A stretch of DNA of 64,000 nt from assembly GCA_003194435.1 (NCBI GenBank), contig PQXC01000008.1:19773-83772 (forward strand). Reading direction: 5' to 3'. Each line of letters opens with the position of its first letter. Within the stretch, counting starts at the first letter, position 1. The position numbers were made by a program, and so were the translations under genes. Below, piece by piece: positions 10,379-58,212 of the stretch. The stretch comes from Candidatus Methanophagaceae archaeon. GTDB lineage: Archaea > Halobacteriota > Syntropharchaeia > Alkanophagales > Methanospirareceae. The notes below the pieces were generated by a model. The model had not been told where the DNA came from. It ran no database searches and saw only the letters and a program-made list of their open reading frames with translations.

Positions 10379-10400
10379 ATGGGATAGGAGTGATACCACA

Positions 10401-11420: not shown

Positions 11421-11510
11421 GTTTTAAGTTTTAATCTTAATTAATACTGATTATAATGAAGAACCGCAGGAGGAGGCTGTTTCAAATTTGAGAAAGGGCA
11501 GGTAAAAGAG

Positions 11511-37869: not shown

Positions 37870-39086
37870 AAATGAGGATGAGGGAAGCATTAAGGGAGGA
37901 TCTTGAAAAAATATTCGGGAAAGCATGGCCCGCCTGGCTCGGCGGATTGCTGGTGGGCATGTTCAACGTATTCGAATACATAATCAAGAAGCCCTGGGGA
38001 ATCACATCCGCCACTTCACGGTGGTCAGGCTGGATACTAAACAGTTTTGGCGTTGATACCCCTAATTGGCTTTACTTTCAACAGATGAAGACATTTCAAA
38101 ATATTCCGTTCTTGTATGACGGCGATGCTATCAACGTGGGGGTGGTATTGGGTGCGTTCATTGCCGCTTCTCTCTCGTATGAATTCGCTATTCGACGAGC
38201 ACGGAGCAATAGAGTGTACATGCAGGCATTTGCCGGCGGTATCCTGATGGGTTATGGTGCACGGCTGTGCAATGGATGTAACTTAGGGGCACTCATCTGT
38301 TCCATTCCTTCGCTTTCATTAAGCGGCTGGATTTTCTGGCTTGGCTTAGCCTTAGGTGCTTACATAGGTATAAAATTTATCGTCTGGCAAATTACTCGAA
38401 TGACGGTAAGCAGCCGACCAATGAGCACAACGGAAAAGAGATCAGGACTGAACGAACAGCGGCAGACAATTATTGGGCTAACAGGTATTCTCGCAGCGGT
38501 AGCAATTACCCTATTTTATTCTTACTTCACCAAAGCAGAGGTAGTAATCCTCTTTTTAATCGGGCTGGCGTTTGGTGTAATAGTGCAACGCAGCCGTTTT
38601 TGCTTCGTTACCTCTTTTAAGGACGTCTTTATCAGCAGAGACGCAACAATATTTAAAGCGATTATCATCGCCATGCTGGTAGCCACCATTGGTTTCTCGC
38701 TGATTATGTATAAACTTGTTCCCGATCCGTCTATCGGCGAGCTGCCCGCACATGCGAAGATAAACAACATTGGCAGTCCGTTCGGGATTCCGCATCTGGT
38801 TGGCGGCATCCTGTTCGGGCTTGGGATGACATTAGCCGGTGGGTGTGCCTCAGGAACGCTGTACCGGATGGGAGAAGGTTATGTCAGTCTATGGGTAGCG
38901 TTTCTTGGGACACTGGTGGGCTATGTTTTTATTGCACATAACTGGCAGTGGCTGTATCCCAATCTGCTTGAAGGCACGAAAGTCTGGTTGCCGCGGTATT
39001 TAGGCTGGGGCGGGTCCGTGTTCCTGACACTATCGGCACTGATGGGTGTGTATGCCCTGATTACATATTGGGAGGCAAGTGGCTGA
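37848..39086 (+). CDS. YeeE/YedE family transporter (TsuA-like thiosulfate/sulfur-compound transporter)
   Basis: About 9 TM segments. Two conserved Cys-containing half-repeats, LCNGCNLGAL and GGCASGTLYRMGEG. Confidence 0.7.
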   Translation: MGNNRKMKMRMREALREDLEKIFGKAWPAWLGGLLVGMFNVFEYIIKKPWGITSATSRWSGWILNSFGVDTPNWLYFQQMKTFQNIPFLYDGDAINVGVVLGAFIAASLSYEFAIRRARSNRVYMQAFAGGILMGYGARLCNGCNLGALICSIPSLSLSGWIFWLGLALGAYIGIKFIVWQITRMTVSSRPMSTTEKRSGLNEQRQTIIGLTGILAAVAITLFYSYFTKAEVVILFLIGLAFGVIVQRSRFCFVTSFKDVFISRDATIFKAIIIAMLVATIGFSLIMYKLVPDPSIGELPAHAKINNIGSPFGIPHLVGGILFGLGMTLAGGCASGTLYRMGEGYVSLWVAFLGTLVGYVFIAHNWQWLYPNLLEGTKVWLPRYLGWGGSVFLTLSALMGVYALITYWEASG

Positions 39087-40360
39087 GTATGGGCAGAAAA
39101 CAATTAAAATATATAGAACTGGACGATGAATCAGGGAGGTTATATGCGGCTGGAGTGCCTCATTTGCTTTTCCCCGTCAATATAGTGGAATTAATGCGTG
39201 ATATTCTACGAAAAATTGCTGGAAATGCAGCAGCAGAAGCGTTGATGTACCGAATAGGCGAGGAAGTCGGAAGGGAATATGCGAAACGTGTAAAAAAGAT
39301 TCTTGACGAAAGTGAGGTGGAACTGGACAAGGATGCACTGCTGACGCAGGTCTATTGCACCACCATGCAGTCAGGCTGGGGAGGGATAAAAAAAATCAAA
39401 TGGATCAACCCAGAAGATGGCAAGATAGAGATTCGGGGCAGAAACTTCCCCTGTATGGAACTGGAAAACTGCAATTGCGCACTGGAGCGAGGAATATTAG
39501 CAGGGGCATACCATGAAATCGTTGGCAAGAGGATATATTACGCCCTGACCAAAAAGACAAGAGATGAGGTTGTAATCAATTCACTTGAAGAGATCCCGCC
39601 CGAGGTACTGAGGGATGAAGAGTTAGCACTGCTGAGCAAAAGGGAACTGGAGGAGATAATTAGAGAGAAAACCCGTGAGTTGGAGAAATCGCGAATTGCG
39701 ACATTGAACATAGCGCAGGACATTGAGAATGCGAAGAAGGAGCTGCAAGAATCTGAAGAGAAATTGCGGGCTATCGTGGAAAGCGCGAAAGATTCCATAT
39801 TCATAAAAGACCGGCAATTAAGATACGTATTGGTTAATCCTGCTATGGAACGTTTGTTCGGGCTGCCAGCCGAAAAGATGCTTGGGAAATCGGATGCCGA
39901 ATTATTTGGTGAAGAGAGAGTGAAGCATATTGAGGAGGTGGATAGTCAGGTGCTTCAGGGCGAAACCGTAGAGGACGTGTATTCCAAACCTGTTGGAAGA
40001 GAAATAAAAACGTTTCATACGATAAAAGTGCCATTGCGAGATGCTTCCGGCAAGATAAGCGGGTTATGCGGTATCGAGCGTGACATAACCGAGCAGAAAC
40101 GGATGGAGGATAAGGTGAAGGAGGCAATGACGAAACTTAAGCGGTTCAATCGTCTGGCGGTCGGTCGCGAATTGAGGATGATAGAACTGAAGAGGGAGGT
40201 GAACCAGCTTTGTGAACGATTGGGGGAGAAGCCAAGATACAACCTGTCATTTGTGGACAATAAAATTACAGGTGGAAATGAAAACGAAAATGAAAATAAA
40301 AAATTACGAATTGGGTTGTTCGCAAATGCGAACGTAGGAGAAGAGAAAAATGAAAGATAA
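39068..40360 (+). CDS. V4R + PAS sensor protein with the same C-terminal coiled-coil module; no output domain
   Basis: V4R-like NCNCALERGILAGAY; PAS (IVESAKDSIFIKDRQLRYVLVNPAMERLFGLPAEKMLGKSD); C-terminal RFNRLAVGRELRMIELKREVNQLCERLGEK. Confidence 0.5.
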   Translation: MGGKWLSMGRKQLKYIELDDESGRLYAAGVPHLLFPVNIVELMRDILRKIAGNAAAEALMYRIGEEVGREYAKRVKKILDESEVELDKDALLTQVYCTTMQSGWGGIKKIKWINPEDGKIEIRGRNFPCMELENCNCALERGILAGAYHEIVGKRIYYALTKKTRDEVVINSLEEIPPEVLRDEELALLSKRELEEIIREKTRELEKSRIATLNIAQDIENAKKELQESEEKLRAIVESAKDSIFIKDRQLRYVLVNPAMERLFGLPAEKMLGKSDAELFGEERVKHIEEVDSQVLQGETVEDVYSKPVGREIKTFHTIKVPLRDASGKISGLCGIERDITEQKRMEDKVKEAMTKLKRFNRLAVGRELRMIELKREVNQLCERLGEKPRYNLSFVDNKITGGNENENENKKLRIGLFANANVGEEKNER

Positions 40361-41210
40361 TAGTGAGATGGATTTTAAGGAAGCGAGTAAGAGATTTGTG
40401 GCTGTGTTTGGGGAAAGAGAACCACTGATTCGACCCGTAGGTGTAAAACTAATCCCAAAAGGAAGAGGAAGAGAAGTCGAAGTCCCGAAGGGTACGAGGT
40501 CTATTGAGGAATATCAGGGCGTTCCGTGGTGTGAAGCGGTGAGAATTGCAGCTACGAAAGGTGAGGTGGTGGTAATAACCAAAGAGAATGTGGGTTGCCC
40601 AGCAGCAGCCATCGCGCTTGGTCTCGTTGACCAGTATCAAAAAGAGCCGCTGGGCGGTAAACGGAAATACACCGATTTGATGGCTGAACCTGCTGCACCG
40701 GCTGACTTCACCAATGGACTGGTCTATGCCTGCAAAGATAGCGGGAACATGCAGTTCGCTCTCTTCGGGAATGATGATACGGGACGCTATGAAACATTGG
40801 GAGCAGCGCTAAAAGCTGTTTCCGGAATGAAGGCAATTCAACCTGCAATTATGGACGCTGCGGTGGCATACCAGGCGGAAAATCTGGACCTGGACCTCAA
40901 GCCTGACGTGGTGATTCTCGCATTAAAACCAAAGCAGGCACTGCTTGCGATTCAGGGCTACAATTTCCTATCCGGTAATCGCTTTGAAATGAGCACCATC
41001 GGTATTAGAGGCGTATGTGCTGATTTAACTGCTCAGCCTTTCATAGAGCAAAAGCTAAACGGCTCTTTATTCTGTCTCGGTGCGAGAGCGCTCGGAGGTT
41101 GGGAAGGTAACCTGCTGGGATTGGGCATGCCATACTCAATATTCCAGCAGATGGTCTCTGGCATGGAAAGGTCAGCGACCGGATTTCCGTATAAGGCATA
41201 TCCTGAATGA
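40350..41210 (+). CDS. Hypothetical protein (possibly DUF169-like)
   Basis: 286 aa; the conserved GCPAAAIALGL block is only weakly suggestive. Confidence 0.3.
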   Translation: MKDNSEMDFKEASKRFVAVFGEREPLIRPVGVKLIPKGRGREVEVPKGTRSIEEYQGVPWCEAVRIAATKGEVVVITKENVGCPAAAIALGLVDQYQKEPLGGKRKYTDLMAEPAAPADFTNGLVYACKDSGNMQFALFGNDDTGRYETLGAALKAVSGMKAIQPAIMDAAVAYQAENLDLDLKPDVVILALKPKQALLAIQGYNFLSGNRFEMSTIGIRGVCADLTAQPFIEQKLNGSLFCLGARALGGWEGNLLGLGMPYSIFQQMVSGMERSATGFPYKAYPE

Positions 41211-41221
41211 GAGACTGTGAT

Positions 41222-41266
41222 AGTGAAAGTGAAAGTGAAAGTGAAAAGTGAAAAGTGAAAGGGGGG
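41222..41266. repeat. (GTGAAA/GTGAAAA)x6 microsatellite followed by a G6 tract, immediately upstream of the ATG at 41271
   Basis: gtgaaagtgaaagtgaaagtgaaaagtgaaaagtgaaagggggg, seen directly. Confidence 0.8.
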
Positions 41267-41270
41267 ATAA

Positions 41271-42776
41271 ATGGGCAAAAGGGAGAAAAACAGCCTGAGG
41301 GAACTCGTAGACCTTGATGAACTGCAATCCATTCAGGATGACTTTGCAAAAACCGTTGGCACTTCTTCTGTTATTTTCACACCAGAAGGTGAGCCTCTAA
41401 CGCAGTTCAGCAACCCTACCGGCTTTTGCTCTCTGATACAATCAACAGAGGAAGGCAGACGGCGCTGTTTTCAATCGTTCATGGATATGAGCCGAAAGGC
41501 ACTGGAGCTAAAAGAGCACAAAATCCTCTATTGTTTTGCACATGGTGGTCACTTTGTCGCACCGATAATCATCAATGGCGAGCATAAAGGAACGATGTTC
41601 GCCGGGCAATTTATACCACGGGAGTTCTCCAGGGAGCAACTAACCGAGCTAAGGCGAATAGCGGAGGAGATAAACATAGACCCGGAACAGCTAATAAAAG
41701 AAGCGAAGCGGATGCGTGTGGTGGAAGAAGAGAGGGTCTGGAATTATTCGAGTTTATTGTTTCATATAGTGAGCCTTATTGCAAGGCTGGGTGCGCAAGC
41801 GGCTGAACTGAATCGTGCCAATGATGCATTGCAAAGGGCGCATGACGAACTGGAAATCCGCGTACAGGAACGCACGGCGGAACTGGCGAAGAGTAACGAA
41901 CAACTGAGACGTGAGATAGAGGAACGAAAGCGGATGGAGAAGGAGCGGGAAGAAGCCCACCTCGCAGTGCTGAACATAGCAGAAGACCTCAACGAGGCGA
42001 GAATAGAAGCGGAGAATGCACGGAGGGAACTGGAAGAGCTGACACGAAAGCTTGAGAAATCGAATCAGGAGCTGCAAGATTTCGCTTATATCGTCTCACA
42101 CGACCTTAAGGCACCGGTGCGAAAAGTGGCGATGTTTGGAGACCTGCTGAAGGAATCGCTGGCAGGTCGGCTGGACGAAGACGAGCAGGAGAACTTCGAG
42201 TTCATGATTGAAGGCGCCACACGAATGCAGCAGTTGATTGATGCTCTGCTTACCTATTCACGTGTACATACGAGGGTAAAGCCACCGCAGCGAGTGGATC
42301 TGAGGAAGGTGATAGAGGACTTGAAGGAGATAGAACTGGCGTTACCACTGGAGGAGACAGGGGGCAAGGTGGAGATAGAGGAGCCACTGCCATCTGTTTA
42401 TGCCGACCCTTCACAGGTGTACCAGCTATTGCAGAACCTGATAGCGAATGGGTTGAAGTATCACCGTGAGGGAGTTCCACCCGTGATCACAATTCGTGGT
42501 AAACAGCTTGGGGACTGGGTTCGTATTGAGGTTCAGGACAATGGGATTGGCATACCCGAAGAGCATCATGAGAGGATATTCGGGATGTTCCAGCGGCTTC
42601 ATGCCGATGATAAGGGCACGGGAGTGGGTCTTGCGGTCTGTAAAAGAATTGTGGAGCGGCATGGCGGGGAGATAGGAGTTGAGTCCACGCCAGGAGTTGG
42701 TTCCACATTCTGGTTCACCCTCCCGAGTGCTCCGAACCTGAATGAAGAACTAAAAACTAAAGGGAGTGAGGAATGA
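41271..42776 (+). CDS. Sensor histidine kinase with N-terminal PocR domain
   Basis: PocR block; HisKA FAYIVSHDLKAPVRKV; HATPase_c GTGVGLAVCKRIVERHGGEIGVESTPGVGSTFWFTLP. Confidence 0.75.
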   Translation: MGKREKNSLRELVDLDELQSIQDDFAKTVGTSSVIFTPEGEPLTQFSNPTGFCSLIQSTEEGRRRCFQSFMDMSRKALELKEHKILYCFAHGGHFVAPIIINGEHKGTMFAGQFIPREFSREQLTELRRIAEEINIDPEQLIKEAKRMRVVEEERVWNYSSLLFHIVSLIARLGAQAAELNRANDALQRAHDELEIRVQERTAELAKSNEQLRREIEERKRMEKEREEAHLAVLNIAEDLNEARIEAENARRELEELTRKLEKSNQELQDFAYIVSHDLKAPVRKVAMFGDLLKESLAGRLDEDEQENFEFMIEGATRMQQLIDALLTYSRVHTRVKPPQRVDLRKVIEDLKEIELALPLEETGGKVEIEEPLPSVYADPSQVYQLLQNLIANGLKYHREGVPPVITIRGKQLGDWVRIEVQDNGIGIPEEHHERIFGMFQRLHADDKGTGVGLAVCKRIVERHGGEIGVESTPGVGSTFWFTLPSAPNLNEELKTKGSEE

Positions 42777-42779
42777 AGA

Positions 42780-43634
42780 ATGAGAGAGGTCATCGGTGAG
42801 AAGCGTACGCATATAGATAGAAAAGAGGGACGGGTGTGCAATATCTTGAACAGTGAACGAGCGATATTATTAAAGGAGCTTGAACGTTCAAATCGAGAAT
42901 TGCGAGAGCTCGTTTTTGTCACTTCGCATCATCTACACGAGCCCACAAGGAAGATATTCACCTATGGCAATATGCTCTTCAACTCGCTCCGGGATAAAAT
43001 AGATACAGATGACCGCGAGAATCTCCAGTTCATAATTGATGGTGCCCGGAAGATGCAGGCGCTGGTGGATGATCTGCTCCTGTATTCAGAGGTGATCATG
43101 CGTAAAGAGAGGGCACGGGTGCCCGTTGATCTGAACGAGATAGTGGAAAAACTGAGGACTAAGGAGCTGGCTTCTTTGCTTGACGCGACTCATGGTATCA
43201 TCAAAGTGCCGGAGCCACTACTCCCTGTTCAGGCTGATCCCGTACAGGTACGATTGCTCATGCAGAACCTGATTGCAAACGGGTTGAAGTTTCATCGTGT
43301 GGGTACGATACCCGAAGTAACAATCAGGAGCTCACGCTGTGGAGATAAAGAGGTTCGCGTGAGTGTGGAGGATAATGGAGTGGGAATATCCAGGGAATAT
43401 CATAATAGAATATTCAGTCTGTTTCATCAGCTTCAGCCATCTGAGGATGGCACTGGAGTTGGACTGGCGATCTGCAAGAAGGTGGTGGAGCAGCATGGAG
43501 GAGCTATAGGAGTCGAATCCACGCCGGGCAGGGGTTCTACTTTCTGGTTCACTTTACCAATTGCAAGCAGGAATTGCACTATCCCTGTAATTGTAAGTAA
43601 AGAAATTCATATTGAGGAGGTGAAGAAGAAATGA
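42780..43634 (+). CDS. Histidine kinase (HisKA + HATPase_c; no obvious sensor domain)
   Basis: FVTSHHLHEPTRKI H-box; GTGVGLAICKKVVEQHGGAIGVESTPGRGSTFWFTLP. Confidence 0.7.
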   Translation: MREVIGEKRTHIDRKEGRVCNILNSERAILLKELERSNRELRELVFVTSHHLHEPTRKIFTYGNMLFNSLRDKIDTDDRENLQFIIDGARKMQALVDDLLLYSEVIMRKERARVPVDLNEIVEKLRTKELASLLDATHGIIKVPEPLLPVQADPVQVRLLMQNLIANGLKFHRVGTIPEVTIRSSRCGDKEVRVSVEDNGVGISREYHNRIFSLFHQLQPSEDGTGVGLAICKKVVEQHGGAIGVESTPGRGSTFWFTLPIASRNCTIPVIVSKEIHIEEVKKK

Positions 43635-44077
43635 GAAGAATAGACCCTGCTATAGTATTGCTGGTGGAAGACGACCCGGGCGACCAGAAACTGGTAAAAA
43701 TCTCACTGAAGAGGCAGCGCATAGCGAACGAACTGCATATAGTGAGCAGTGGAGAGGAGGCGCTGGACTTTTTATACCAGCGTGGTAAGTACAACGGCGG
43801 AACGCCCCGACCCGACCTGATTCTGCTGGATTTGAATATGCCGGGTATGGGTGGGAAAGAATTTCTGAGACGGATAAAGAAAGACGGAGATTTGAAAAAG
43901 ATTCCCGTGGTTATCCTGACGACATCTGATTCCGAGCGGGATATCATAGATAGCTATCATCTGCAAGCCTCAGGCTACGTGAAGAAGCCAGTGGACCTGG
44001 AGGATTTCAAGAATGTAATGAAAGAGATAGGGGAATACTGGTTTGTGATGTGCAAACTGCCCCCAAAGGAGGTGTGA
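43631..44077 (+). CDS. CheY-like single-domain response regulator (receiver)
   Basis: VLLVEDDPGD...LILLDLNMPGMGG...VVILTTS...GYVKKP receiver motifs with the phospho-acceptor Asp. Confidence 0.8.
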   Translation: MRRIDPAIVLLVEDDPGDQKLVKISLKRQRIANELHIVSSGEEALDFLYQRGKYNGGTPRPDLILLDLNMPGMGGKEFLRRIKKDGDLKKIPVVILTTSDSERDIIDSYHLQASGYVKKPVDLEDFKNVMKEIGEYWFVMCKLPPKEV

Positions 44078-44080
44078 AAA

Positions 44081-45235
44081 ATGATGAACTACGAATTGGA
44101 AACGAAATTAGAGGAGCAGCCAGAGGAGAAGCCGCTGAAGATTCTCGTATGCGATGATGACCCTTCGTTCCGGAAGTTGGTACGTACATATTTGCATCAG
44201 GGTGCAGATAGGAGATTCAAGTTGATAGAAGCCGGCAATAAGGAGGAGATACAGCAGGCACTCGATAATGAGGCTATTGACATCATCTTTATGGACATAA
44301 TGATGCCTGACAAATCGGGTATGGAGTGGCTTCGTGAGATTGTTCAGGGTAAGATAGCACCGGTAGTCATGCTTACAGGGTTTGGTAGTGAAGATATTGC
44401 AGTCCAGTCAATTCGTAATGGTGCTATTGATTATATCCCAAAAGACCACCTCACAAAGGACCGGTTATGGGGTACTATAAAAGCAACACTGGAGACATGG
44501 AAGCGGATGCAGGCGGAGGATGAGAAGAAGAAGCTGATGTGCGAACTGGAGGCTAAGAATACCGAACTGGAACGATTCACCTATACGGTATCACACGACC
44601 TCCGCTCTCCTCTACTCACTATCCGTGGTTTTGTATCCATGTTGCGTGACGATTTAGAGGAGAACGACCGTGAGAAGGTAGCTAAAGACCTTGATTATAT
44701 AGATAATGCAGCGAAGAAGATGGAACAGCTCCTGGACGATACATTGCAATTATCCCGTATCGGGCGTGTGGCGAATCCACCCGAGGATGTGCCATTCGCA
44801 GAGATAGTAGACGATGCACTGGAACAAACAATGGAACAGATATTGGAGAGCGGTGTGAAGGTCACAGTGGCAGATGATTTTCCTGTTGTTCATGTTGACC
44901 GTATGAGAATAGCGGAGGTGCTGGTGAACCTCATAACGAACAGCATAAAATATATGGGCGACCAGCCGAATCCGGAGATATTTATCGGTTATCGGAAGGA
45001 CGGTGACGAAGTTGTCTTCTTCGTGCGGGACAATGGCATAGGGATAGACAAGAGTCAACATGAGAAGGTATTCGAGCTTTTCTATAAGCTCGACAGCAGT
45101 ACCAAAGGCACAGGTGCCGGGCTCGCCATTGTGAAAAGGATAATAGAAGTACATGGGGGACGCGTCTGGATAGAATCAGAGAAAGGGAAGGGGTGCACTG
45201 TTTGTTTTACACTTCCTGTTGTTAAGTTAAAATAA
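44081..45235 (+). CDS. Hybrid response regulator / histidine kinase (REC + HisKA + HATPase_c)
   Basis: ILVCDDDPSF...IIFMDIMMPDKSGME receiver; FTYTVSHDLRSPL H-box; GTGAGLAIVKRIIEVHGGRVWIESEKGKGCTVCFTLP. Confidence 0.75.
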   Translation: MMNYELETKLEEQPEEKPLKILVCDDDPSFRKLVRTYLHQGADRRFKLIEAGNKEEIQQALDNEAIDIIFMDIMMPDKSGMEWLREIVQGKIAPVVMLTGFGSEDIAVQSIRNGAIDYIPKDHLTKDRLWGTIKATLETWKRMQAEDEKKKLMCELEAKNTELERFTYTVSHDLRSPLLTIRGFVSMLRDDLEENDREKVAKDLDYIDNAAKKMEQLLDDTLQLSRIGRVANPPEDVPFAEIVDDALEQTMEQILESGVKVTVADDFPVVHVDRMRIAEVLVNLITNSIKYMGDQPNPEIFIGYRKDGDEVVFFVRDNGIGIDKSQHEKVFELFYKLDSSTKGTGAGLAIVKRIIEVHGGRVWIESEKGKGCTVCFTLPVVKLK

Positions 45236-47603: not shown

Positions 47604-47825
47604 TTAACGAATATCGGTGGATTTACGCTTGTAACGCTCAGTGATGAAGACCCGTTTTGCTCTGTACCTCACTTTCGCTTCATCATAATCATATTGCTCC
47701 ACGAGCTTCGCAAGCAATCGCTTTTTACTCTCTCCCTCGAGTCCCAGGTCTGACATTATCGCTTCTACTATCCTGTCCTTGTCCTTATTCTTATCTTCAT
47801 TCCCGGGCTTATCTTCTTCGCTCAT
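47604..47825 (-). CDS. Small hypothetical acidic/basic protein
   Basis: 73-aa ORF with an RBS-like context; no motif. Confidence 0.25.
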   Translation of the reverse strand: MSEEDKPGNEDKNKDKDRIVEAIMSDLGLEGESKKRLLAKLVEQYDYDEAKVRYRAKRVFITERYKRKSTDIR

Positions 47826-48109: not shown

Positions 48110-51100
48110 TTATGCCCTCCTGCTGTTATTTCCATCACGCATCCTATTATACATATTCTGCGACTCTGAAAAAATATGAATAAGCCATCTACTCCCTTCT
48201 CTACTCTCCAAACGCTCAATCGCATTTCTTAAAACCTCCTCATCCATGTATCCCATTTCATTCAATCTCTCCTTTATATCATTCACAGAATCACTCCCTG
48301 AAAAAGAATGCAATAGTAGAATATGTCCTGCAACCACACGCTCACTTTCCTCTCCTAATCCTAATATCCAACCACAAGCCCTTATTGCATACTCTATTCT
48401 TCGCTCATTCGTGAAAAGATTTCCCGCACGCAGCATATCCTCCCTCGCTCTACCATACTCGCCTAATCTCACATAAGCGAGACCTCTGTTGTAGTATGCT
48501 TCCGCAAGATCAGGATTCAGTTTTATCGCCTTGTCGTAATCTTCTATCGCTCTATCATACTCGCCTAATCTCACATAAGCGAGACCTCTGTTGTAGTATG
48601 CTTTCGCATAATCTTTATTCAGTTCTATCGCCTTATTGAAATCTTCTATCGCTCTACCATACTCGCCTAATTCCGCATAAGCGAGACCTCTGTTGCTGTA
48701 TGCTTTCGCATAATCTTTATTCAGTTCTATCGCCTTATTGAAATCTTCTATCGCTCTACCATACTCGCCTAATCTCACATAAGCGAGACCTCTGTTGCTG
48801 TATGCTTCCGCAAAATCAGGATTCAGTTTTATCGCCTTATTGAAATCTTCTATCGCTCTATCATACTCGCCTAATTCCGTATAAGCGACACCTCTGTTGT
48901 TGTTGTATGCTTCCGCATATTCATTTAGTTCCAGAGATGTGCTATATGCCTTAATTGAACTCTCAAAATCCTTCTGTTCATATAAAGCATTTCCGAGATA
49001 GAAGAAATGTGCTGCAAGAGAGAGGCGAGCGATATCCTTTCCAGGAGCTTCAACATGTTCCACTTTTTTGAAATAATTGTAAGCGAATAGCAGCATGCGA
49101 GCATCGGGAGGTGCATTTTCTGCGGCATCCGCTATCAGGTAGAAGAAGCTCATATTTTTACCTTCATCAAAAGCCTTTTTTATCTCCTCTCTTATCACTG
49201 CCTTCGCATCCATTAAATCTAAAGAGGCTTCAAGGAACTTTTCAGCAAGTTCTCTATCTTCTATTCCGCCTTCTATCGCACTATTTATCGCATCTCGCCA
49301 ATACTGTGATAATGAATATAACCTTCCTTCTCTCTGCAGATATTTTTCAAGCGCCTCTTTCTGCTCTTTTGCCTCATTTCCTTGTGCAATTCTTTCATAA
49401 ATCGCATCATAAAGGAATATTGAGAAAATTCTGAGCTTTGAGATTGTGATTAAGAGCTTAATGAAAGTCATATCACTTTCATCATTACGCAATAATTTTC
49501 TTATTGTGTCCATCAGAATGTTCTTAACACCTTTTGGCAATCTCTCTATTTCTTCCATGCTGAGTGTTCTATTGTGATGTTCATGCATCAAATGTCGTAT
49601 GTAGAAAGGGGCGTTGTTTGACCTCTCAACCAATAATTGCATCGCTTTGTTCAGCACTTCGCTCATTCTTCCGCTCTCAATCATTTCACATGCTTCATCT
49701 GGAGGAATGCCAGCAATACTTACATTGAAATACTTTATGTAGCTCGCAATGATCTTCCACATATCATCCGTTTCAGGTTTTACTTCATAAGGTATCAGTT
49801 CAAACCCTCTATCATAAACAACTCTCTGAAGAATGTCCTTTTCAGAATTTCTCATCGTTATAATCATTTTTGCACGGTTTCTCTTTGCAAAATCAACAAT
49901 TCTCTCGCATTTATTCCTTAACGCTTCTTCCACATTGCCATTCGCTTTCAAATGTCCGAGAGCATCAATTACAATGAATTTCCTATATTCATGCTCAACC
50001 TGTGATATAGATGATTCGTATTCGTATGAATTAAGGAATATAACTTCTTCCTTCCCCCGCTCGATAATACGCTCAACAAGGAGAAGCATGTATGTCGTCT
50101 TTCCCACACCTATATCGCCGTGTATAGCGAGAATCTGCCCCTCCGAAGGCTCTTTAAACTCATAATAATTATATACGGTTGATTTGAACTCTTCCCATGT
50201 CTGAAATCCCTTTTTGTAGGGCGTTTCTAAAAATCTATCATCTTCAACTACATTCTTCAATTCATCTTCATTTCTCACGCGCTTATACGCCTCTATTGTT
50301 CTTATTGGAGGTCTTTCTTCAAGCTCAGGAGGTTCAATAACATTAAAATCAAGTTCAAAATGCAAATTGTATCGCTCAAGAACATCTCTTACACTATTCA
50401 ATTCCTCTTCGATTTTCTCTTTCACTTTATCTGCGACATTGTTTTCTTTGTGGTCTTTGTATTTCAGGAGCATTTCTACATATATCTCGCTTCCTTTTAT
50501 CTCTACTCTCTCCACTATTTCGTGTTTCCAGTATTCTTCCTGGGATTCCTGCGGGATTTGTGGTAGACGCCTGTAATCTTCTGGGGGTAGGCGATTCTTA
50601 CCGCAGTCAAGGGCATCTGCGAGCCTGAGCAATGCTGCTAAAAATCTTGTGCGAACATTCTCACCTGCGATATGAATTGTGCTCTCCTCATCAACATCAT
50701 TTATGGCAACCTTACTGCTGTGAGCACGGCAAATCCATTGAATAATTGTCGCTTCTGTTTTACCACTTAACTCTATTTCTCTCAAATGCTTGCTGATATA
50801 TTCAGCACTTCGCTTGTGATGTTCTTTCCTGATTCTATTGCAAACTTCAGGATCATTAATATCCTCACCTTCCCGCATTAACATCCCGATGTCATGGAGC
50901 CAAGCACTGCATTTCAGCAGGAAATTCTCATATTCACTTAGATTCACACCTTCGGTGAGTTTATCCAGTATTTTGATTACTGCCTCTGAATGCCCTGGAC
51001 CGTGGTCAGTGTAATATCTGAAAAGACCTTGAGAGTGTATATATGGTAGTTTTCGCATGCAAAACTCCTTTATTTTTTCAAGTCTTTCACCGAGATTATG

Positions 51101-51121
51101 ATTAGACATGAATCTCACCAT
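48110..51121 (-). CDS. HD-domain / P-loop NTPase / TPR-repeat protein (STAND-like candidate defence NTPase)
   Basis: N-terminal HD (HGPGHSEAV...AWLHDIGML...RLADALD); Walker A LAIHGDIGVGKTTYML; Walker B KFIVIDALGH; at least 8 C-terminal TPR units (AEAYxNRGLAYxxLGEYxRAIEDFNKAIELN). Confidence 0.6.
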   Translation of the reverse strand: MVRFMSNHNLGERLEKIKEFCMRKLPYIHSQGLFRYYTDHGPGHSEAVIKILDKLTEGVNLSEYENFLLKCSAWLHDIGMLMREGEDINDPEVCNRIRKEHHKRSAEYISKHLREIELSGKTEATIIQWICRAHSSKVAINDVDEESTIHIAGENVRTRFLAALLRLADALDCGKNRLPPEDYRRLPQIPQESQEEYWKHEIVERVEIKGSEIYVEMLLKYKDHKENNVADKVKEKIEEELNSVRDVLERYNLHFELDFNVIEPPELEERPPIRTIEAYKRVRNEDELKNVVEDDRFLETPYKKGFQTWEEFKSTVYNYYEFKEPSEGQILAIHGDIGVGKTTYMLLLVERIIERGKEEVIFLNSYEYESSISQVEHEYRKFIVIDALGHLKANGNVEEALRNKCERIVDFAKRNRAKMIITMRNSEKDILQRVVYDRGFELIPYEVKPETDDMWKIIASYIKYFNVSIAGIPPDEACEMIESGRMSEVLNKAMQLLVERSNNAPFYIRHLMHEHHNRTLSMEEIERLPKGVKNILMDTIRKLLRNDESDMTFIKLLITISKLRIFSIFLYDAIYERIAQGNEAKEQKEALEKYLQREGRLYSLSQYWRDAINSAIEGGIEDRELAEKFLEASLDLMDAKAVIREEIKKAFDEGKNMSFFYLIADAAENAPPDARMLLFAYNYFKKVEHVEAPGKDIARLSLAAHFFYLGNALYEQKDFESSIKAYSTSLELNEYAEAYNNNRGVAYTELGEYDRAIEDFNKAIKLNPDFAEAYSNRGLAYVRLGEYGRAIEDFNKAIELNKDYAKAYSNRGLAYAELGEYGRAIEDFNKAIELNKDYAKAYYNRGLAYVRLGEYDRAIEDYDKAIKLNPDLAEAYYNRGLAYVRLGEYGRAREDMLRAGNLFTNERRIEYAIRACGWILGLGEESERVVAGHILLLHSFSGSDSVNDIKERLNEMGYMDEEVLRNAIERLESREGSRWLIHIFSESQNMYNRMRDGNNSRRA
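48470..48910. repeat. Near-identical tandem array of 102-bp units (4-5 copies) encoding consecutive TPR repeats inside the HD-NTPase-TPR gene
   Basis: ctcgcctaat(c/t)(t/c)c(a/g)(c/t)ataagcgagacctctgttg..gtatgct(t/c)(t/c)cgca...atcgccttattgaaatcttctatcgctcta.catactcgcc recurs with a 102-nt period. Confidence 0.8.
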
Positions 51122-51661
51122 CCCATGAGGGTTTCTTATAGGTTTTATTGTTATTTTTCATAAAGATTAAAGATTACTTGCCTGAATATTATACGGTCTC
51201 TTCTCATACAAAACTTCTTCCAGCAGACCTGTTCTACAAAATACTTTTCCAACGTGCCCATCAACAATCATCACATCAATTGTTTCAATCCACAAAACCC
51301 GGACAAAATTCATTTCCGGTTTTAACTTAGGAATTTAAGAATAAAGTGCCATAACTTATCTGCCTTATCGAGCTTCTCCATGACCTCCTCCTTACCTCGC
51401 TCTATAATATTCATCGCAGCGCTATTCAATACCTTACCAGAGGCTTTTTCAATCATACGATAAAGAGGTGAGAGAGCGATAGGGATAACGGTGCCAGATT
51501 TTCACGGGGATTTGAGTTAAAATGAACAGAGCTTCTCCAACTGGATGCCCCGCAATTTCATTGCGGAGTGGCGTGGATAGGGCTTTTAAAGGATGTGCGC
51601 AAGTTAAAACAGAAATATTAATATATTTAAAAAACAAAAGAGAAGAGAGAAGAATAACAAA

Positions 51662-52681
51662 ATGAAACTAAAGAAGATGTTTGCAGTAATTGTTCTGGTA
51701 GCCATAATTTCGGTTTCTTTTGCTGGATATCATCATTTTTTTGTCGGGAAAGAACAATTTGAAGGGGATTCATCTCCTCCAATTGTCTCAAATGCTTCCC
51801 TAGCTAATGTTTCTATTCTATTAAAATTAGAAGGGGTTTCGGTTAAGATAGCGTCTGATATGAACGAGAGCGCAGTTTGCTCTCTGCTTCAAAAAGAGCT
51901 TGAGGCTGATGTGAATCCCGTGGGAGAGGGAGTGTATGAAATAAGGAAAAACATTACAGAGGAGCATTTAACAGAGGTTTTGAAGAAGATAAACGCAAGC
52001 ATAGCAGAGGAAATAGATGATGAGCCGTTTTTTAAGGAAGGTATAACTCCCCAGACAAGGAACGAAACCTGGCAAATAATCAAGACGAAGTTAAATATGC
52101 TTGGTCTTGAAAACTTCACTGTGAGGACAAGCGGAGAAAACCTCTTGCGTATTAATATCACAGGTGTGGATGCTCAGGATGTTCAGATCGTGAAGGATAT
52201 AATAGGTGTACCGGGAAAGTTTGAAATAAGAATTCAGACGGGTGGTAAAGGTGGAGACATAAATGCAGGACAAAGATTAGAAGATATTGAGAATATCACT
52301 GCCCATGTCATTTATGCGAGCGAAGGAATAGAAAGCGCGGGAACGATACCAGTGAGAGTAGGAGGGGACTCACTATGGGGTGTTCCTTTCTCACTGAAAA
52401 AGGAAGCTGCTGCTAAGTTGAGGGATGATGCGGAGAAGTATGGTGCTTTGGATAACCCAATGGACCACGAAATCGCTATGCTGCTCGACGATGTGGTGAT
52501 ATATAGTGCTCCTTTGTCACCGGAGCTTGCGAGTGAGATGAAGACAAAAAAGATAGAGAACTTAGTTGTTGAAACTGGGCTTGGAGAGGAGGGATTTAAG
52601 AAGACAAAAGAGCTAATAATTCATTTAAGAGCGGGTACAATGCCAGTTAATGTTAAATTAGTTCGTTTTGTTAGCCTATAA
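51662..52681 (+). CDS. Paralog of the extracytoplasmic domain of the 11511 SecD-like protein, lacking the C-terminal TM bundle (signal-anchored, 339 aa)
   Basis: TKLNMLGLENFTVRTSGENLL...GKFEIRIQTGGKGG...ENITAHVIYASEGI...KYGALDNPMDHEIAMLLDDVVIYS...LIIHLRAGTMPVNVKLV aligns with residues ~140-340 of the 11511 protein. Confidence 0.45.
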   Translation: MKLKKMFAVIVLVAIISVSFAGYHHFFVGKEQFEGDSSPPIVSNASLANVSILLKLEGVSVKIASDMNESAVCSLLQKELEADVNPVGEGVYEIRKNITEEHLTEVLKKINASIAEEIDDEPFFKEGITPQTRNETWQIIKTKLNMLGLENFTVRTSGENLLRINITGVDAQDVQIVKDIIGVPGKFEIRIQTGGKGGDINAGQRLEDIENITAHVIYASEGIESAGTIPVRVGGDSLWGVPFSLKKEAAAKLRDDAEKYGALDNPMDHEIAMLLDDVVIYSAPLSPELASEMKTKKIENLVVETGLGEEGFKKTKELIIHLRAGTMPVNVKLVRFVSL

Positions 52682-52748
52682 TGCCCCTCGGATGCCAATT
52701 TATTGCGGGGTAGCGAGGATTGGGCGTAAACTGGAAGATTAGTTAATA

Positions 52749-53114
52749 CTACCCTGTCGCATTTTCCGGCACATATATCACCTCGCCCGTTGTCAGCCGG
52801 TATGCAGTCCCCAACTTCCTGCCTTGTCCGCCCGCGACCTGTTCCGTCATATTCATCACCTTTATCTCCTGCCCCTTCTTGATAATCACCTGCATATTCT
52901 CCTGACCCGGATTCTTCACTACCGTTATATCTGCAGTCGGGTTCAAGAGCTCCGGGACGCTCGCGGATATTACCAGTGCGACGAGAAGAGCAACGGCAAA
53001 CACCATCGCGGCATCAAACAGGTTTGCGACCCCGTTAAGTGGGTCCTCCCCTTCCTCTTCATCCAGAATCAACCGATTTCGCCTCCTCCCGCTTCTCATT
53101 ACCATTACCATCAC
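52749..53114 (-). CDS. ExbD/TolR-like single-TM protein (DUF2149-like)
   Basis: Basic N-terminus, one TM (MVFAVALLVALVISA), periplasmic beta-rich tail. Translationally coupled to the MotA/TolQ-like gene. Confidence 0.4.
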   Translation of the reverse strand: MMVMVMRSGRRRNRLILDEEEGEDPLNGVANLFDAAMVFAVALLVALVISASVPELLNPTADITVVKNPGQENMQVIIKKGQEIKVMNMTEQVAGGQGRKLGTAYRLTTGEVIYVPENATG

Positions 53115-53117
53115 CTT

Positions 53118-53735
53118 TTATTTCAGTACCTCCACCACGTATTCCATATCACTCAAATCCTGCGTGTACCACCTCTTCTTGACCAATGAGATTGTGTATG
53201 CTATACCGCCGCTAAGAAGTCCGAGAACCGTAGTGCTGAATGCCACAACCAGATTAGTTGCAAGTTGCTGAATGTTTCCCGCAGTGAGCCCCATCAATGC
53301 AGGTCCTAAGGGTATCAATGTGCCCATCAATCCGAACATGGGTCCCAGCTTTACCACCAGCCTCGCCTTCTCGAGCTCCTTTGCTATCCTTAGTTCATAG
53401 TCCTGAAGCAGCTTCTCCGCTTCTACCGCGAATTTATTCTCTTTTAGCGATTCTGTAAGGTCATTCAGGAAACTTCTGAGGAAGTCATTAGAGCCACTGG
53501 ACCTCAGGACTTCTGCTGCTTTTTTGTAATCCTGCATCTGCATATATTTCCTTGCGGCTCTACACCCAACCTTTAGTTTGGCTATATCCCTGTTTCTCGA
53601 TGCATATTCTGATATTAACTGCCCTATGGAAATGAGCGACCATGCCACCAGCCCGAGCAGTATAATGATTACAGGGTAGAGCAACGAGTTCGAAATCATG
53701 AACATCGCCCCAATTATTCCAGAAGTTGCGTCCAT
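53118..53735 (-). CDS. MotA/TolQ/ExbB-family proton-channel protein
   Basis: 3 TM; conserved LGPMFGLMGTLIPLGPALMGL channel helix. Confidence 0.55.
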   Translation of the reverse strand: MDATSGIIGAMFMISNSLLYPVIIILLGLVAWSLISIGQLISEYASRNRDIAKLKVGCRAARKYMQMQDYKKAAEVLRSSGSNDFLRSFLNDLTESLKENKFAVEAEKLLQDYELRIAKELEKARLVVKLGPMFGLMGTLIPLGPALMGLTAGNIQQLATNLVVAFSTTVLGLLSGGIAYTISLVKKRWYTQDLSDMEYVVEVLK

Positions 53736-54806: not shown

Positions 54807-56528
54807 TCAGCAATCAACGGGTTCTAACATGTCATCATCTGCTGGCGACTCCCACAATGGCTTAAACAGCACACCTAATGTTCCGTCAGGGTCGGCTTTC
54901 CACTGTGCAATGTGCATTGCATCTGCCATTGTTACATCTCCATCGTCCGTAGTATCTGCACACTTGAGTTGACTCGCATTAAGACTTCTCAAGCCTGCTT
55001 TATACTGTGCAATGAACATAGCATCTGCCATTGTTATGTGCTCATCCATCGTGACATCACCTTCCATAAGTGTTGGGTTCACTTCAAATGTTCCATCAGT
55101 GACGGTATGCGGTATTGTGTTAGCACTTGCATCGGTTAGTTCCTTAACGTCAAGGTCTAACGAGCTTTTGTCTCCTGTATTTCCTACTGCTTTCAGTGTT
55201 ACGTATGCGAAAACAAAATCGCCTGTCTTTCCCGTAGCTGAGAACCAGGTCATCTTTGTCACGCCGGCTGCATTGTCTATTCCTGTTGTTACCGGACTGA
55301 GGTCTCCTTCTGATACGCTGTCCACGATTACTACGTCTTTGTTATACGATAGCCAGATGTTTGCAGTTCCTAAATTGGTGACATTTGTTATGCGAATTGG
55401 CACGGTAACCGTTGAACCCCTGGGCGCGGATGCTGATTCAATTGAGACTGTTGCTTTGCCATCTTCGCTTATGCAACACCAGCTCGGATCCAAGTCATCT
55501 GCAGAATTACTCGTTAGCTTCCTAACATTTGTTCCATCTGCATTCATCGCATAGATTTCCCAATCACCATCACGCTCTGAGGAAAACGCAATCTTCGTGC
55601 CATCAGGAGACCATGAAGGCACATAATCGGTATGGTAAGGGTCGTTTGTCAATCTGACCAAGTTGCTCCCGTCGGAGTCCATCACGTATATCTCTCCATA
55701 TGCACCATATCTGCCAGGAGTTATTTCAAGGAAACCATGGCGGAAGGAGTAAAACACTATTTTATCACCCACAGGAGACCAAGCAGGAGAACAATCGTCC
55801 ATCTTAATGCCTTTTGAATACGCTGGCGAAATGAGCCTTCGTTTGTTAGATCCATCCGCAGAATTCATCACATAGATTTCACTTCCGCCCATCGCAAAAA
55901 CAATCTTGCTACCATCGGGAGACCAAGCCTGATTACTGATTATAGCATGAGGATAGGCAAGGCGCTTAAGATTAGACCCGTCCGCATTCATCACATAGAT
56001 GCCGGTATTCGTGACAGAACTCCCAGACCTGAATGCAATCTTCTTACCATCTGGACTCCACGAAGGGTCCAAGTCTACGATTGAATTCTTAGTAAGCTGC
56101 ACTACATCAGAGCCATCGGAGTTCATCACATAGATCTCCAAATCACCGTCTCTATCTGAGGTAAAGGCAATCTTGGTCGCGTCTGGTGACCACACGGGGT
56201 TCCTATCACTTGCTGTATTATTCGTTAGCTTCTTAACATTTGTTCCGTCTGCATTCATCACGTATATCTCATCATCGCCGTCCCTATTCGACCTGAAGAC
56301 AATCTTGCCAACCAAATCGCCAGCATCGGCAACGTTAATTGGATGTTCGCTTTCAGATACGCTCGTTTGGTTAACGATAACGCTCGTTTGATTAACGATA
56401 ATAGCACTGCTAATTATCGCGCCATCAGCGTCATAAATTTTACTCACATCACTTGATATAACAGGCAAAACCGTCAAAATAGACATCAATATTATCGCTG
56501 CCACTACTATTGCAATTTCTTTCTTCAT
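54807..56528 (-). CDS. Secreted modular protein: signal peptide + PD40/TolB-like beta-propeller repeats + cohesin-like domain + C-terminal dockerin-like repeat pair
   Basis: Repeated IYVMNxDGSNxxxLT...SWSPDGxKIAF (PD40). Cohesin-like IWLSYNKDVV...GDFVFAYVTLKAVG. Dockerin-like GDVTMDEHITMADAMFIAQ and DTTDDGDVTMADAMHIAQ. Confidence 0.55.
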   Translation of the reverse strand: MKKEIAIVVAAIILMSILTVLPVISSDVSKIYDADGAIISSAIIVNQTSVIVNQTSVSESEHPINVADAGDLVGKIVFRSNRDGDDEIYVMNADGTNVKKLTNNTASDRNPVWSPDATKIAFTSDRDGDLEIYVMNSDGSDVVQLTKNSIVDLDPSWSPDGKKIAFRSGSSVTNTGIYVMNADGSNLKRLAYPHAIISNQAWSPDGSKIVFAMGGSEIYVMNSADGSNKRRLISPAYSKGIKMDDCSPAWSPVGDKIVFYSFRHGFLEITPGRYGAYGEIYVMDSDGSNLVRLTNDPYHTDYVPSWSPDGTKIAFSSERDGDWEIYAMNADGTNVRKLTSNSADDLDPSWCCISEDGKATVSIESASAPRGSTVTVPIRITNVTNLGTANIWLSYNKDVVIVDSVSEGDLSPVTTGIDNAAGVTKMTWFSATGKTGDFVFAYVTLKAVGNTGDKSSLDLDVKELTDASANTIPHTVTDGTFEVNPTLMEGDVTMDEHITMADAMFIAQYKAGLRSLNASQLKCADTTDDGDVTMADAMHIAQWKADPDGTLGVLFKPLWESPADDDMLEPVDC

Positions 56529-56571
56529 TTTTTTTCACCTCCTAATTTTATTATCCCGCTTTTCTAATATT

Positions 56572-57858
56572 TTATGCAAGCTTTATTGCCGGTATCCAAC
56601 CACCGTATTCTTTACCATTCACATCTACGAACCCCGTGCAGTTTATCCAGCCCTTTGCAGTTGGCAGTGCACTTGTATGATGAATCTGCGGATAAGAACC
56701 GGTTCTTATTTCATAGTAGTATTCTTTATCTGCGAATAGCGTGAAAGGGTTGCCAAAGGCTATGCTATGCCAGTTGTCTTGATAGCCATCCCAAAAAGCT
56801 TCTTCACCACTCCACGTATCGTTCCATATCTTTGCATATTCGGTATGCCCGCCAGTGCCTGCGCAGGGATAGGTGTAAAGCGAAGATACAGTAATTGTTT
56901 GATTTGGCGTTATCGTTCCATAATGCGTACCGGGTATGGATGGATAGGGATTGACAGACTCTCCCGCGTCGAAGACCGACGATATTGTAAATGAGCCGTC
57001 CTCAACAGTATGCGATATTGCGTTTGCACTCATGTCGCCTAATTCCTTAACGTCAAGGTCTAAAGAGCTACTCTGTCCAGCACTACCGACTGCTTTCAGT
57101 GTGAGATAAGCAAAAACGAAATCCCCTGTCTTTCCCGTCGCAGAGAACCAGTTCATCCTCGTCACGCCTGCCGTATTGTTTATCGCAGCTGTTATCGGAC
57201 TGAGATCGCTTTCTGATACGCTCTCCACGGTCACAACGTCTTTATTATACGATAGCCAGATGTTTGCTGTTGCCATATTCTCAACATTTGTGATGTTAAT
57301 AGCTACAGTGACCGTTTCTCCGGGATTTGCAGTTGCCTCTTGAATTGATACTACTGTTGGCGCTGGTGACGGACTCGGTGCTGGACTTGCATTCCACGTT
57401 ATATTTCCGGTATAACAGGTATCCACATACGGAAAACGAACCGTCCAAGTATGACTATAAGTTCCGGTTGCAGAGTTTGGTGAAGTGAATTCTCCGTAAA
57501 TCCTTACTTCTCTATTGTACTGGAATTTGTTTTCAAGTATACTTAATGGAGGGATAATCAACGTAAAAGTTCTGCGACCCCTACTGCCACTGAAACAGAC
57601 ATAACTGTATGAGATGCTGAAGTTATACACCTGCATGCCGCTAACGTTAAATGAAACATTTTCGCCTTCCGAAGTAGTACCAACCCATGAGCCACTTGTT
57701 ATGGCTTCTGATAGCTCACTTAATGAACCCCCACACGGGTCACTCGCATTCGTTACATTTTCTCCCCCCGACATAACAGGCAGAACCGTCAAAACAGACA
57801 TCAATATTATCGCTGCTACCACAATTGCACATTCTTTTTTCTTTTTTCTTTTTTCCAT
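56572..57858 (-). CDS. Secreted protein with the same cohesin-like module (start at the second Met, giving a signal peptide)
   Basis: Signal KECAIVVAAIILMSVLTVLPVMS is almost identical to that of the neighbour. VSIQEATANPGETVTVAINITNVENMATANIWLSYNKDVVTVES...GDFVFAYLTLKAVG aligns with the 54807 protein. Confidence 0.5.
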   Translation of the reverse strand: MEKRKKKKECAIVVAAIILMSVLTVLPVMSGGENVTNASDPCGGSLSELSEAITSGSWVGTTSEGENVSFNVSGMQVYNFSISYSYVCFSGSRGRRTFTLIIPPLSILENKFQYNREVRIYGEFTSPNSATGTYSHTWTVRFPYVDTCYTGNITWNASPAPSPSPAPTVVSIQEATANPGETVTVAINITNVENMATANIWLSYNKDVVTVESVSESDLSPITAAINNTAGVTRMNWFSATGKTGDFVFAYLTLKAVGSAGQSSSLDLDVKELGDMSANAISHTVEDGSFTISSVFDAGESVNPYPSIPGTHYGTITPNQTITVSSLYTYPCAGTGGHTEYAKIWNDTWSGEEAFWDGYQDNWHSIAFGNPFTLFADKEYYYEIRTGSYPQIHHTSALPTAKGWINCTGFVDVNGKEYGGWIPAIKLA

Positions 57859-58212
57859 ATTACCTCCTAATCTTTTTCTATAGCGACTGAATGCCATATC
57901 TTTGATTGGCTGAAGTTATAAAAAAGGTTTACGGTATATTCCGCAGTCTACAAAATGTACTCTACATACTCTATAAAACCAGCGAACAAGAACAAGCACC
58001 TTTACGGCTACATCTCTATGTTGCCCAATAAGCACCCTTTGACTATCATGGTACTCCAGTTTGTGATTTTCGAACTCCTCATCGCTCACCGATAGCACTA
58101 TCTCCTTATTATCCTCGGTTATCGTGACTGGTGCGAGGTATTGCACGCCTAGCAGGTTTTGACGTAGAAACCGCAGGAGGAGGTGAGGAAGGAATTATGC
58201 TATATAAAGTTT

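Follow-up and report, generated by a model that had tools for sequence, protein, structure and literature searches.

The closest described counterparts of the gene reported here are fungal NLR proteins (Dyrka et al. 2014, PMC4986451). In their repeat regime, the units of a protein are highly conserved among themselves, vary in number and evolve in concert, with positive selection acting on the concave face. We describe an archaeal protein of this kind, encoded at 48110-51121 on the minus strand of a 64,000-nucleotide stretch of contig PQXC01000008.1 from a Candidatus Methanophagaceae archaeon (hereafter the window), whose tetratricopeptide repeat (TPR) region is built from tandem 102-bp units. 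We consider it likely that this array is the C-terminal ligand sensor of a tripartite STAND (NLR-like) NTPase in ANME-1 archaea, diversified by gain, loss, conversion and reshuffling of modules together with selection on the binding face. It is a well-documented archaeal case of an internally conserved repeat regime that is already known; it brings no new mechanism and is not mechanistically surprising.

The locus shares several properties with the fungal NLRs (Podospora NWD and HET-E/D/R, with TPR, ANK or WD40 repeats; Paoletti 2007; PMC4986451), including the effector-NOD-repeat architecture, repeat units that are 80-90% identical in fungi and 85-96% identical at the nucleotide level here, a repeat number that is polymorphic among isolates (2 to more than 14 TPRs in fungi, 0 to 5 here), concerted evolution with reshuffling of units, and the location of variable sites, positively selected in fungi and polymorphic here, on the concave TPR face. 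Despite these similarities, the host here is an archaeon, the NTPase is nSTAND3 rather than NACHT or NB-ARC, the effector is HD-CE, and the arrays are short, with at most five units. Moreover, the fungal cases are backed by genetics in the form of incompatibility phenotypes, whereas ours is known from sequences alone. Bacterial NLR-like proteins are also STAND proteins with WD or TPR repeats that are 80-90% identical (Dyrka et al. 2020, bioRxiv 10.1101/2020.01.06.895854, citing Marold 2015 and Hu 2017). Their rapid diversification is proposed there by analogy and without population evidence, whereas an allelic series, conversion traces and site-specific ratios of non-synonymous to synonymous differences per site (pN/pS) are documented in natural populations for the locus described here. 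A further relative is Avs5 (AVAST type 5, SIR2-nSTAND3-TPR/Sel1/PPR), which has in common with our protein the PF20720 nSTAND3 domain and a C-terminal alpha-helical repeat sensor that varies between homologues, and in which sensor and NTPase are both needed for antiviral activity. In contrast to the HD-CE domain found here, the Avs5 effector is SIR2, which hydrolyses NAD+; Avs5 sensors have not been reported as near-identical tandem DNA units, and the Avs models of PADLOC do not match our protein.

Our literature searches returned no report of this repeat regime for ANME-1 or for an HD-CE/nSTAND3 architecture; a paper on ANME-1 hotspots (PMC13385816) mentions neither TPRs nor this gene, and 'HD-CE' as a search term led only to unrelated medical papers. 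The regime was established in fungi and only suggested for prokaryotes; here it is found in an archaeon, at one syntenic locus where a series of alleles can be seen. Much of the methane flux of marine sediments is under the control of ANME-1 archaea, which cannot be cultured and whose virus-host biology is known almost only from sequence. The locus could be used as a population marker for strain-level arms races, and its natural sensor variants form a set to screen against ANME-1 virus proteins. It also carries a caution for assemblers and annotators, as NCBI records label the homologues merely 'tetratricopeptide repeat protein'.

Protein architecture and the repeat array

The protein displays the tripartite STAND layout, with HD-CE at residues 34-246, nSTAND3 at residues 329-425 and TPRs at residues 702-891. 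The original prediction, made from the letters of the window, had assigned the array to the sensor of an NTPase; this architecture is consistent with that assignment, in which the sensing role itself stays putative. The parts of the gene are as follows, in window coordinates (L numbers denote alleles at related loci, described below).

48110-51121, minus strand: complete gene, 1003 residues, with HD-CE effector, nSTAND3 NTPase, helical arm, putative TPR sensor and C-terminal tail
50384-51022, minus strand: HD-CE domain, residues 34-246 (PF24391, E=4e-41; also PF01966 HD), a predicted metal-dependent phosphohydrolase effector
49847-50137, minus strand: nSTAND3 P-loop NTPase core, residues 329-425 (PF20720, 33.7 bits against a cutoff of 27.2, E=3.5e-8)
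49019-49774, minus strand: predicted all-helical arm from the NTPase to the TPRs, residues about 450-701
48917-49018, minus strand: degenerate N-terminal TPR, residues 702-735, with 25-29% nucleotide identity to the array units; in all alleles
48812-48916, minus strand: TPR unit 1, residues 736-770, 35 codons with one extra AAC (Asn)
48710-48811, minus strand: TPR unit 2, residues 771-804
48608-48709, minus strand: TPR unit 3, residues 805-838
48506-48607, minus strand: TPR unit 4, residues 839-872, 100% identical to unit 4 of L002
48449-48505, minus strand: terminal partial unit, residues 873-891, 19 codons covering helix A and the turn; in every allele, including the zero-unit L010
48113-48448, minus strand: C-terminal tail, residues 892-1003 (112 residues), beginning at the anchor (A)REDMLRAGNLFT, which is conserved in the alleles

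Tandem Repeats Finder reports one strong tandem array in the window, at 48445-48917, with a period of 102 bp, 4.6 copies, a 90% match, 0% indels and a score of 702. The array had been predicted at 48470-48910, and its true extent is slightly wider. In a sliding self-comparison at an offset of 102, the signal climbs from a background of 0.2-0.4 to 0.8-1.0 only within the array interval. The array keeps the frame of the minus-strand open reading frame (ORF) 48110-51121 and follows the canonical TPR register. Its four full units are 85-96% identical in nucleotides and 74-91% in amino acids when compared pairwise, with the closest pair formed by units 2 and 3 (96% nucleotide identity); the description of the units as almost identical fits this pair and is somewhat generous for the others. 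The longest exact repeat in the array spans 76 bp, most exact repeats being no longer than 47 bp, and no second copy of the unit DNA exists elsewhere in the 64-kb window. The degenerate TPR at 48917-49018, which ends in the conserved anchor S[IT]SLxLNEY, lies outside the homogenised array and matches consensus TPR structures. Unit 1 carries its extra Asn codon within an (AAC)3 run at 48896-48904 (GTTGTTGTT on the plus strand), at TPR positions 5/6. The same codon is present in L002, and it has the appearance of a 3-bp slippage event that affects the binding face.

Membership of the units in the TPR family is supported by Pfam (TPR_1, PF00515, E=1.3e-55, six stretches) and by signature residues, of which Y4, G8, Y11, A20, F/Y24 and A27 show no or almost no variation and P32 occurs in 36 of 50 units. 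AlphaFold models the TPR region as regular pairs of helix A and helix B with a per-residue confidence (pLDDT) above 90. Its top structural match is the designed consensus TPR 9gzg, with a TM score of 0.89, a root-mean-square deviation of 1.8 A and 44% identity. More generally, the region resembles designed consensus TPR proteins (CTPR; 1na0, 8chy and 9gzg) in its 34-residue helix A/B geometry and in 37-44% identity over structural alignments, the figures of 0.89 and 1.8 A referring to CTPR4.

The effector and NTPase domains are well conserved at the positions expected to matter for catalysis. In the HD-CE domain, the metal ligands H76, D77, H101, H134 and D169, together with R166, are invariant across 32 diverse homologues, and the domain is modelled with pLDDT mostly between 84 and 98. 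The nearest solved folds, all of them weak matches, are domain III of PPX/GppA, HD-GYP, YpgQ and a small alarmone hydrolase (SAH). The NTPase has a Walker A motif, GDIGVGKT, at residues 335-342 and a Walker B motif around D386, with G335, G340, K341 and D386 nearly invariant. The helical arm (residues about 450-701) has no Pfam match and a pLDDT below 50. Because the full-length AlphaFold model has a predicted TM score (pTM) of 0.35 and a pLDDT below 50 at residues 485-698, we did not read the arrangement of the domains from it. A fold search with this model mostly returned TPR proteins, and a sequence search of the PDB with the 735 non-repeat residues returned only consensus-TPR designs, which match the degenerate TPR; HD and NTPase relatives were absent. 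In NCBIfam only generic TPR families appear, below threshold, and no exact match to the window protein is on record. The gene has a G+C content of 39.6%, against 46.0% for the window. The C-terminal tail (residues 892-1003) is present in all alleles, with a pN/pS of about 0.5-1.6, no family match and a low-confidence model; it may act as a cap, in autoinhibition or as a second interface.

Copy number and exchange of units among alleles

A search with the 735 non-repeat residues turned up more than ten relatives, 84-90% identical and 803-1178 residues long, in metagenome-assembled genomes of Methanophagales and in metagenomes. DNA was fetched for 27 loci, of which 24, from Methanophagales (ANME-1) or metagenomes, cover the array region: 19 intact arrays, the zero-unit L010, two frameshifted arrays (L005 and L018) and two short fragments. 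We counted units between the fixed anchors S[IT]SLxLNEY and (A)REDMLRAGNLFT, so that every array consists of a number of full units plus the invariant end piece of 0.56 unit.

0 full units: L010
1 full unit: L012
2 full units: L001, L003, L004, L007, L011, L019, L026
3 full units: L013, L022, and L018 (with a 13-bp deletion)
4 full units: window, L002, L006, L008, L009, L017, L021, L023, L027
5 full units: L005 (with a 1-nt insertion)

The 19 intact arrays and L010 are all in frame and differ in length by whole units. The original prediction had expected such arrays to expand and contract and had proposed counting units across strains and metagenome variants; the count gives not one fixed number but alleles with 0, 1, 2, 3, 4 and 5 full units between fixed anchors, several of them in the same neighbourhood. 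At least one flanking gene is common to the window and seven of the loci. L001 has MotA and orf51662 at 98.5-98.9% nucleotide identity to the window, L004 has orf47604, the methyltransferase, carA and GATase at 92-98% amino-acid identity, and L022 has orf47604, the methyltransferase and carA at 97-99% amino-acid identity; L023 has orf47604 and the methyltransferase, and L002, L003 and L021 have orf47604. These common genes led us to reject the possibility that the copy-number variants are paralogues for L001, L002, L003, L004, L021, L022 and L023, a rejection that does not extend to loci with uninformative flanks or to the non-syntenic L026 and L027.

The copy numbers, the identity of the units and the differences between loci could in principle all arise from collapse, expansion or chimerism of short-read assemblies, and it is true that all the sequences are metagenome assemblies, that the units are highly similar and that the arrays of L005 and L018 are frameshifted. 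We consider this explanation very unlikely. Exact repeats of at most 76 bp, and mostly of 47 bp or less, are of a length that ordinary paired reads resolve. Identical arrays with identical flanks were recovered from independent metagenome assemblies (L001 and L011; L003 and L004), which argues against random assembly collapse. In addition, alleles that differ in copy number also differ in the sequences of their units and in the non-repeat gene body, so that they are not simple subsets of one another, and the in-frame, whole-unit steps described above also count against it. For the contig of the window itself, the original prediction's risk of assembly collapse still applies, although the same repeat lengths and the same two pairs of identical arrays count against it.

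Similarity between the units exists at the nucleotide level and not only in the protein, as had been predicted: synonymous differences per site (pS) amount to 0.028 among the window units, against 0.09-0.22 between alleles (window against the others, non-repeat gene body). This low value means that the units were duplicated or converted recently and that their common ancestry is younger than that of the alleles. Non-synonymous differences per site (pN) run the other way, at 0.116 within the window array against 0.04-0.09 between alleles. Among the nine four-unit alleles, units at the same position are 0.817 identical and units at different positions 0.810; as the surrounding gene is 89-95% identical, the near equality of the two figures means that positional orthology has been erased. 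Identity within the array reaches 0.894 in the window, 0.882 in L002 and 0.859 in L021, well over the level between alleles, which indicates lineage-specific homogenisation in these three.

Replacement of one unit by another has left direct traces. In L021, units 2 and 4 are 100% identical to each other, and unit 2 also equals unit 4 of L023, while unit 2 of L023 differs. Units 2 and 3 are 96% alike both within the window and within L002, and each pair carries changes of its own, L9/G18/A27 in the window and F9/D18/V27 in L002. These two comparisons bear out the recent duplication or gene conversion postulated in the original prediction, whose interpretation is largely supported by our results. 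L001 and L002 are 97% identical upstream of the array and 88.8% identical downstream of it, discordant histories that imply recombination in or at the array.

Five scaffold codons are invariant even synonymously in all 50 unique units (R7 AGA, G8 GGT, I21 ATA, D23 GAT and I28 ATA), which suggests either population-wide homogenisation or selection on the DNA itself. A bolder reading of the locus would be a fast switch of specificity within a lineage, that is, a recombinational 'cassette' system by which a clonal ANME-1 population continuously makes new binding surfaces and in which the identity of scaffold codons is kept as a substrate for recombination. We find this rather improbable. In a variant of it, suggested by analogy with fungal het loci, the locus may be an allorecognition (kin-discrimination) determinant in ANME-1 consortia.

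One relative stands apart from the series. A full-length copy with 84% identity lies in L026 at 9947-12787 (LYOR01000004.1, Ca. Syntrophoarchaeum butanivorans BOX1), a genome of another order, with two units and in a non-syntenic position, which points to horizontal transfer or a binning problem.

Variation on the binding face

Positions 2, 5, 9, 12, 13, 33 and 34 of the TPR are the hypervariable, concave positions that contact ligands (Magliery & Regan, PMC1261162). In the window array, 11 of the 34 positions vary (2, 5, 9, 12, 13, 18, 24, 25, 29, 32 and 34), and they include six of the seven concave ones, 2, 5, 9, 12, 13 and 34 (P=0.002). Across the family, the six positions of highest entropy are 9, 18, 5, 13, 34 and 2, five of which belong to the concave set (P=4e-4). 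This enrichment agrees with the predicted variation of the ligand-binding surface. In contrast to the designed CTPR proteins, ours is natural, and the positions that designers randomised (2, 5, 9, 12, 13, 33 and 34) are those that vary naturally here. The family-wide pN/pS is 1.35 for concave codons, 0.52 for the other 27 positions and 0.13 for scaffold codons.

All 18 of the minimal nucleotide changes needed to relate the window units are non-synonymous, and the pN/pS of the array is 4.1. Counted per nucleotide, the probability of seeing zero synonymous changes among 18 is 0.016 against neutrality and 1.7e-4 against the gene's own pN/pS of 0.42; counted per codon over the 11 variable codons, it is 0.079 against neutrality and 0.005 against a pN/pS of 0.42. 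Some of the differences come as whole-codon cassettes, such as CCT/AAA at position 32 and GTGAGA, ACGGAA or GCGGAA at positions 12-13. The recurrence of these variants in other alleles implies that much of the variation is old polymorphism that has been reshuffled rather than new mutation.

These patterns bear on a neutral account of the locus, in which the TPRs are a structural scaffold or a generic interaction domain and the copy number drifts with no adaptive value. Such an account would accommodate the within-array pN/pS values below 1 in most alleles (0.47-0.98), the disrupted alleles, and a pN/pS of about 1 in the C-terminal tail, which suggests generally relaxed constraint. It would not accommodate the concentration of variation on the concave face (P=4e-4 to 0.002), the contrast between scaffold codons at 0.13 and concave codons at 1.35, or the 18 non-synonymous and zero synonymous changes of the window array, and the gene is intact, with catalytic motifs conserved across alleles. 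Neutral drift therefore appears quite unlikely to us.

Comparisons with syntenic alleles extend the contrast to the gene as a whole. Between the window and L001, the flanks (51551-53504) are 98.5-98.9% identical, with pS of 0.011-0.018 and pN of 0.003-0.005, whereas the gene (48110-51260) is 92.8% identical, its 3' part about 86%, and the STAND gene body has a pS of 0.093 and a pN of 0.041. In the comparison with L004, pS is alike in gene and flanks, and pN/pS is 0.38 in the gene against 0.10-0.20 in the flanks. Set against its flanks, the gene forms a divergence island, a pattern that fits allelic lineages which are long-lived and are exchanged by recombination, as would be expected under diversifying or frequency-dependent selection.

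Targeted mutagenesis, for instance by a diversity-generating retroelement (DGR), is another way in which differences between units might be made. DGRs do diversify STAND sensors in some bacteria and archaea (PMC10907252), and the apparent purpose is the same as here, namely to let the C-terminal sensor of a conflict protein of the STAND type diversify rapidly. The means are different, since those sensors are C-type lectin folds mutagenised by a reverse transcriptase and not TPRs, and the TPR modules here are gained, lost and converted by recombination; a change in the number of whole units is not an outcome of DGR activity. We rejected a DGR-type mechanism, whose probability we regard as negligible, because the 64-kb window holds no other copy of the unit that could act as a template repeat and because the substitutions are not adenine-specific (G/A, A/T, G/C, C/T and the whole-codon change CCT/AAA).

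Proposed function and genomic setting

In the mechanism that we propose, the sensor would be a near-ideal TPR superhelix of 34-residue modules whose scaffold codons are near-identical and whose concave-face residues differ from module to module. Being 85-96% identical over 102 bp, whole modules would be added, deleted, converted and reshuffled by homologous recombination or replication slippage, with selection retaining amino-acid differences on the binding face. The population would in this way hold many alleles, with zero to five modules in varied order and with varied binding surfaces, and a change in module number, order or identity would alter the length and chemistry of the groove and, with them, its specificity. 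If the protein works as Avs and NLR proteins do, a protein or peptide of foreign and probably viral origin would bind in the groove of the TPRs and release autoinhibition, the nSTAND3 NTPase would then oligomerise, and the HD-CE phosphohydrolase would become active, most likely on a nucleotide-type substrate, and arrest the infected cell. The basis for these activation steps is established knowledge of STAND/NLR and Avs proteins (PMC13581612). The divergence of the gene from its flanks lends support to a role in conflict, and so does its domain composition: HD-CE is fused across its family to NACHT, nSTAND1/3/5, caspase, EAD7, HEPN and NA-iREase1, partners that are the domain company of NLR-like conflict systems (PMC7159879), and the NTPase of Avs5, whose antiviral activity has been shown by experiment, also belongs to the nSTAND3 family (bioRxiv 10.1101/2025.07.08.663546).

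The same diversification could also serve an end other than antiviral defence, either kin recognition in ANME-1 consortia or a regulatory function as a STAND protein with an endogenous signal. The locus lies outside any defence island and adjoins histidine kinases, the fungal genes with this repeat regime serve in allorecognition (PMC4986451), prokaryotes that form aggregates are enriched in NLR-like proteins, and the nearest HD folds are hydrolases of signalling nucleotides (HD-GYP, GppA, SAH). However, neither a hypervariable binding face nor a divergence island would be favoured if the ligand were endogenous, the tested nSTAND3 relatives (Avs5) are antiviral, and HD-CE travels with death and effector domains. 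We hold such a role other than antiviral defence to be unlikely; between virus sensing and kin sensing as such, the data presented here fit both alike.

Several observations weigh against our preferred reading of the array as the diversified sensor of a STAND conflict protein. We infer, rather than observe, the defence role, the ligand and the HD substrate. The neighbourhood consists of housekeeping and signalling genes and is not a defence island, and a PADLOC scan returned no Avs or other defence model, only weak TPR matches (2e-7 and 1e-5) and mad8 (0.0048). The signal of pN/pS above 1 in the window array rests on 11 variable codons (per-codon P=0.079), the ratio within most other arrays falls in the range below 1 given above, and the selection tests are pairwise counts that are not phylogenetically independent and take no account of recombination. 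The multi-nucleotide differences between units are probably imported old variants and not new mutations. Disrupted alleles occur, namely a 1-nt insertion in unit 3 of L005 (2914-3016), a 13-bp deletion in the first unit of L018 (887-975) and a gene broken into at least three ORFs in L027 (10172-12677), and these may be pseudogenes or sequencing errors. Finally, every locus sequence is a metagenome assembly.

The immediate neighbours of the gene are carA, GATase, a SAM methyltransferase, histidine kinases, MotA/ExbB and DUF2162, none of which is a defence gene, and the window otherwise looks chromosomal, with PAN, SufBD, apgM and carA. Scans of viral contigs with the protein and with the unit DNA found no relatives of either, and the window lacks tRNA and Rfam features by which its taxonomy could be anchored; the assignment to ANME-1/Methanophagales follows from close homologues in Methanophagales genomes. 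Immediately beyond the 3' end of the STAND gene, the minus-strand ORF 47604-47825 encodes 73 residues with no Pfam match; it is conserved in seven related loci at 88-97% amino-acid identity with a pN/pS of 0.13-0.42, and is probably a genuine gene, whether or not it has any link to the receptor. Upstream of carA and GATase, at 39068-45235, lies a sensory cluster made up of a PAS protein, a histidine kinase with a PocR domain, an HATPase protein and a response-regulator/histidine-kinase hybrid. At 60-2300 and 8354-10378, the window encodes an N6-adenine methylase/Eco57I-like (type IIG-like) protein and a protein with a weak match to MutS domain V, possible further genes of defence or DNA transactions; the Eco57I-like methylase is about 46 kb from the STAND gene. 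Two adjacent cohesin-domain proteins are encoded on the minus strand at 54807-57897, one of which also has PD40 beta-propeller repeats and a dockerin, and this pair suggests a cell-surface, cellulosome-like assembly module in the ANME-1 genome.

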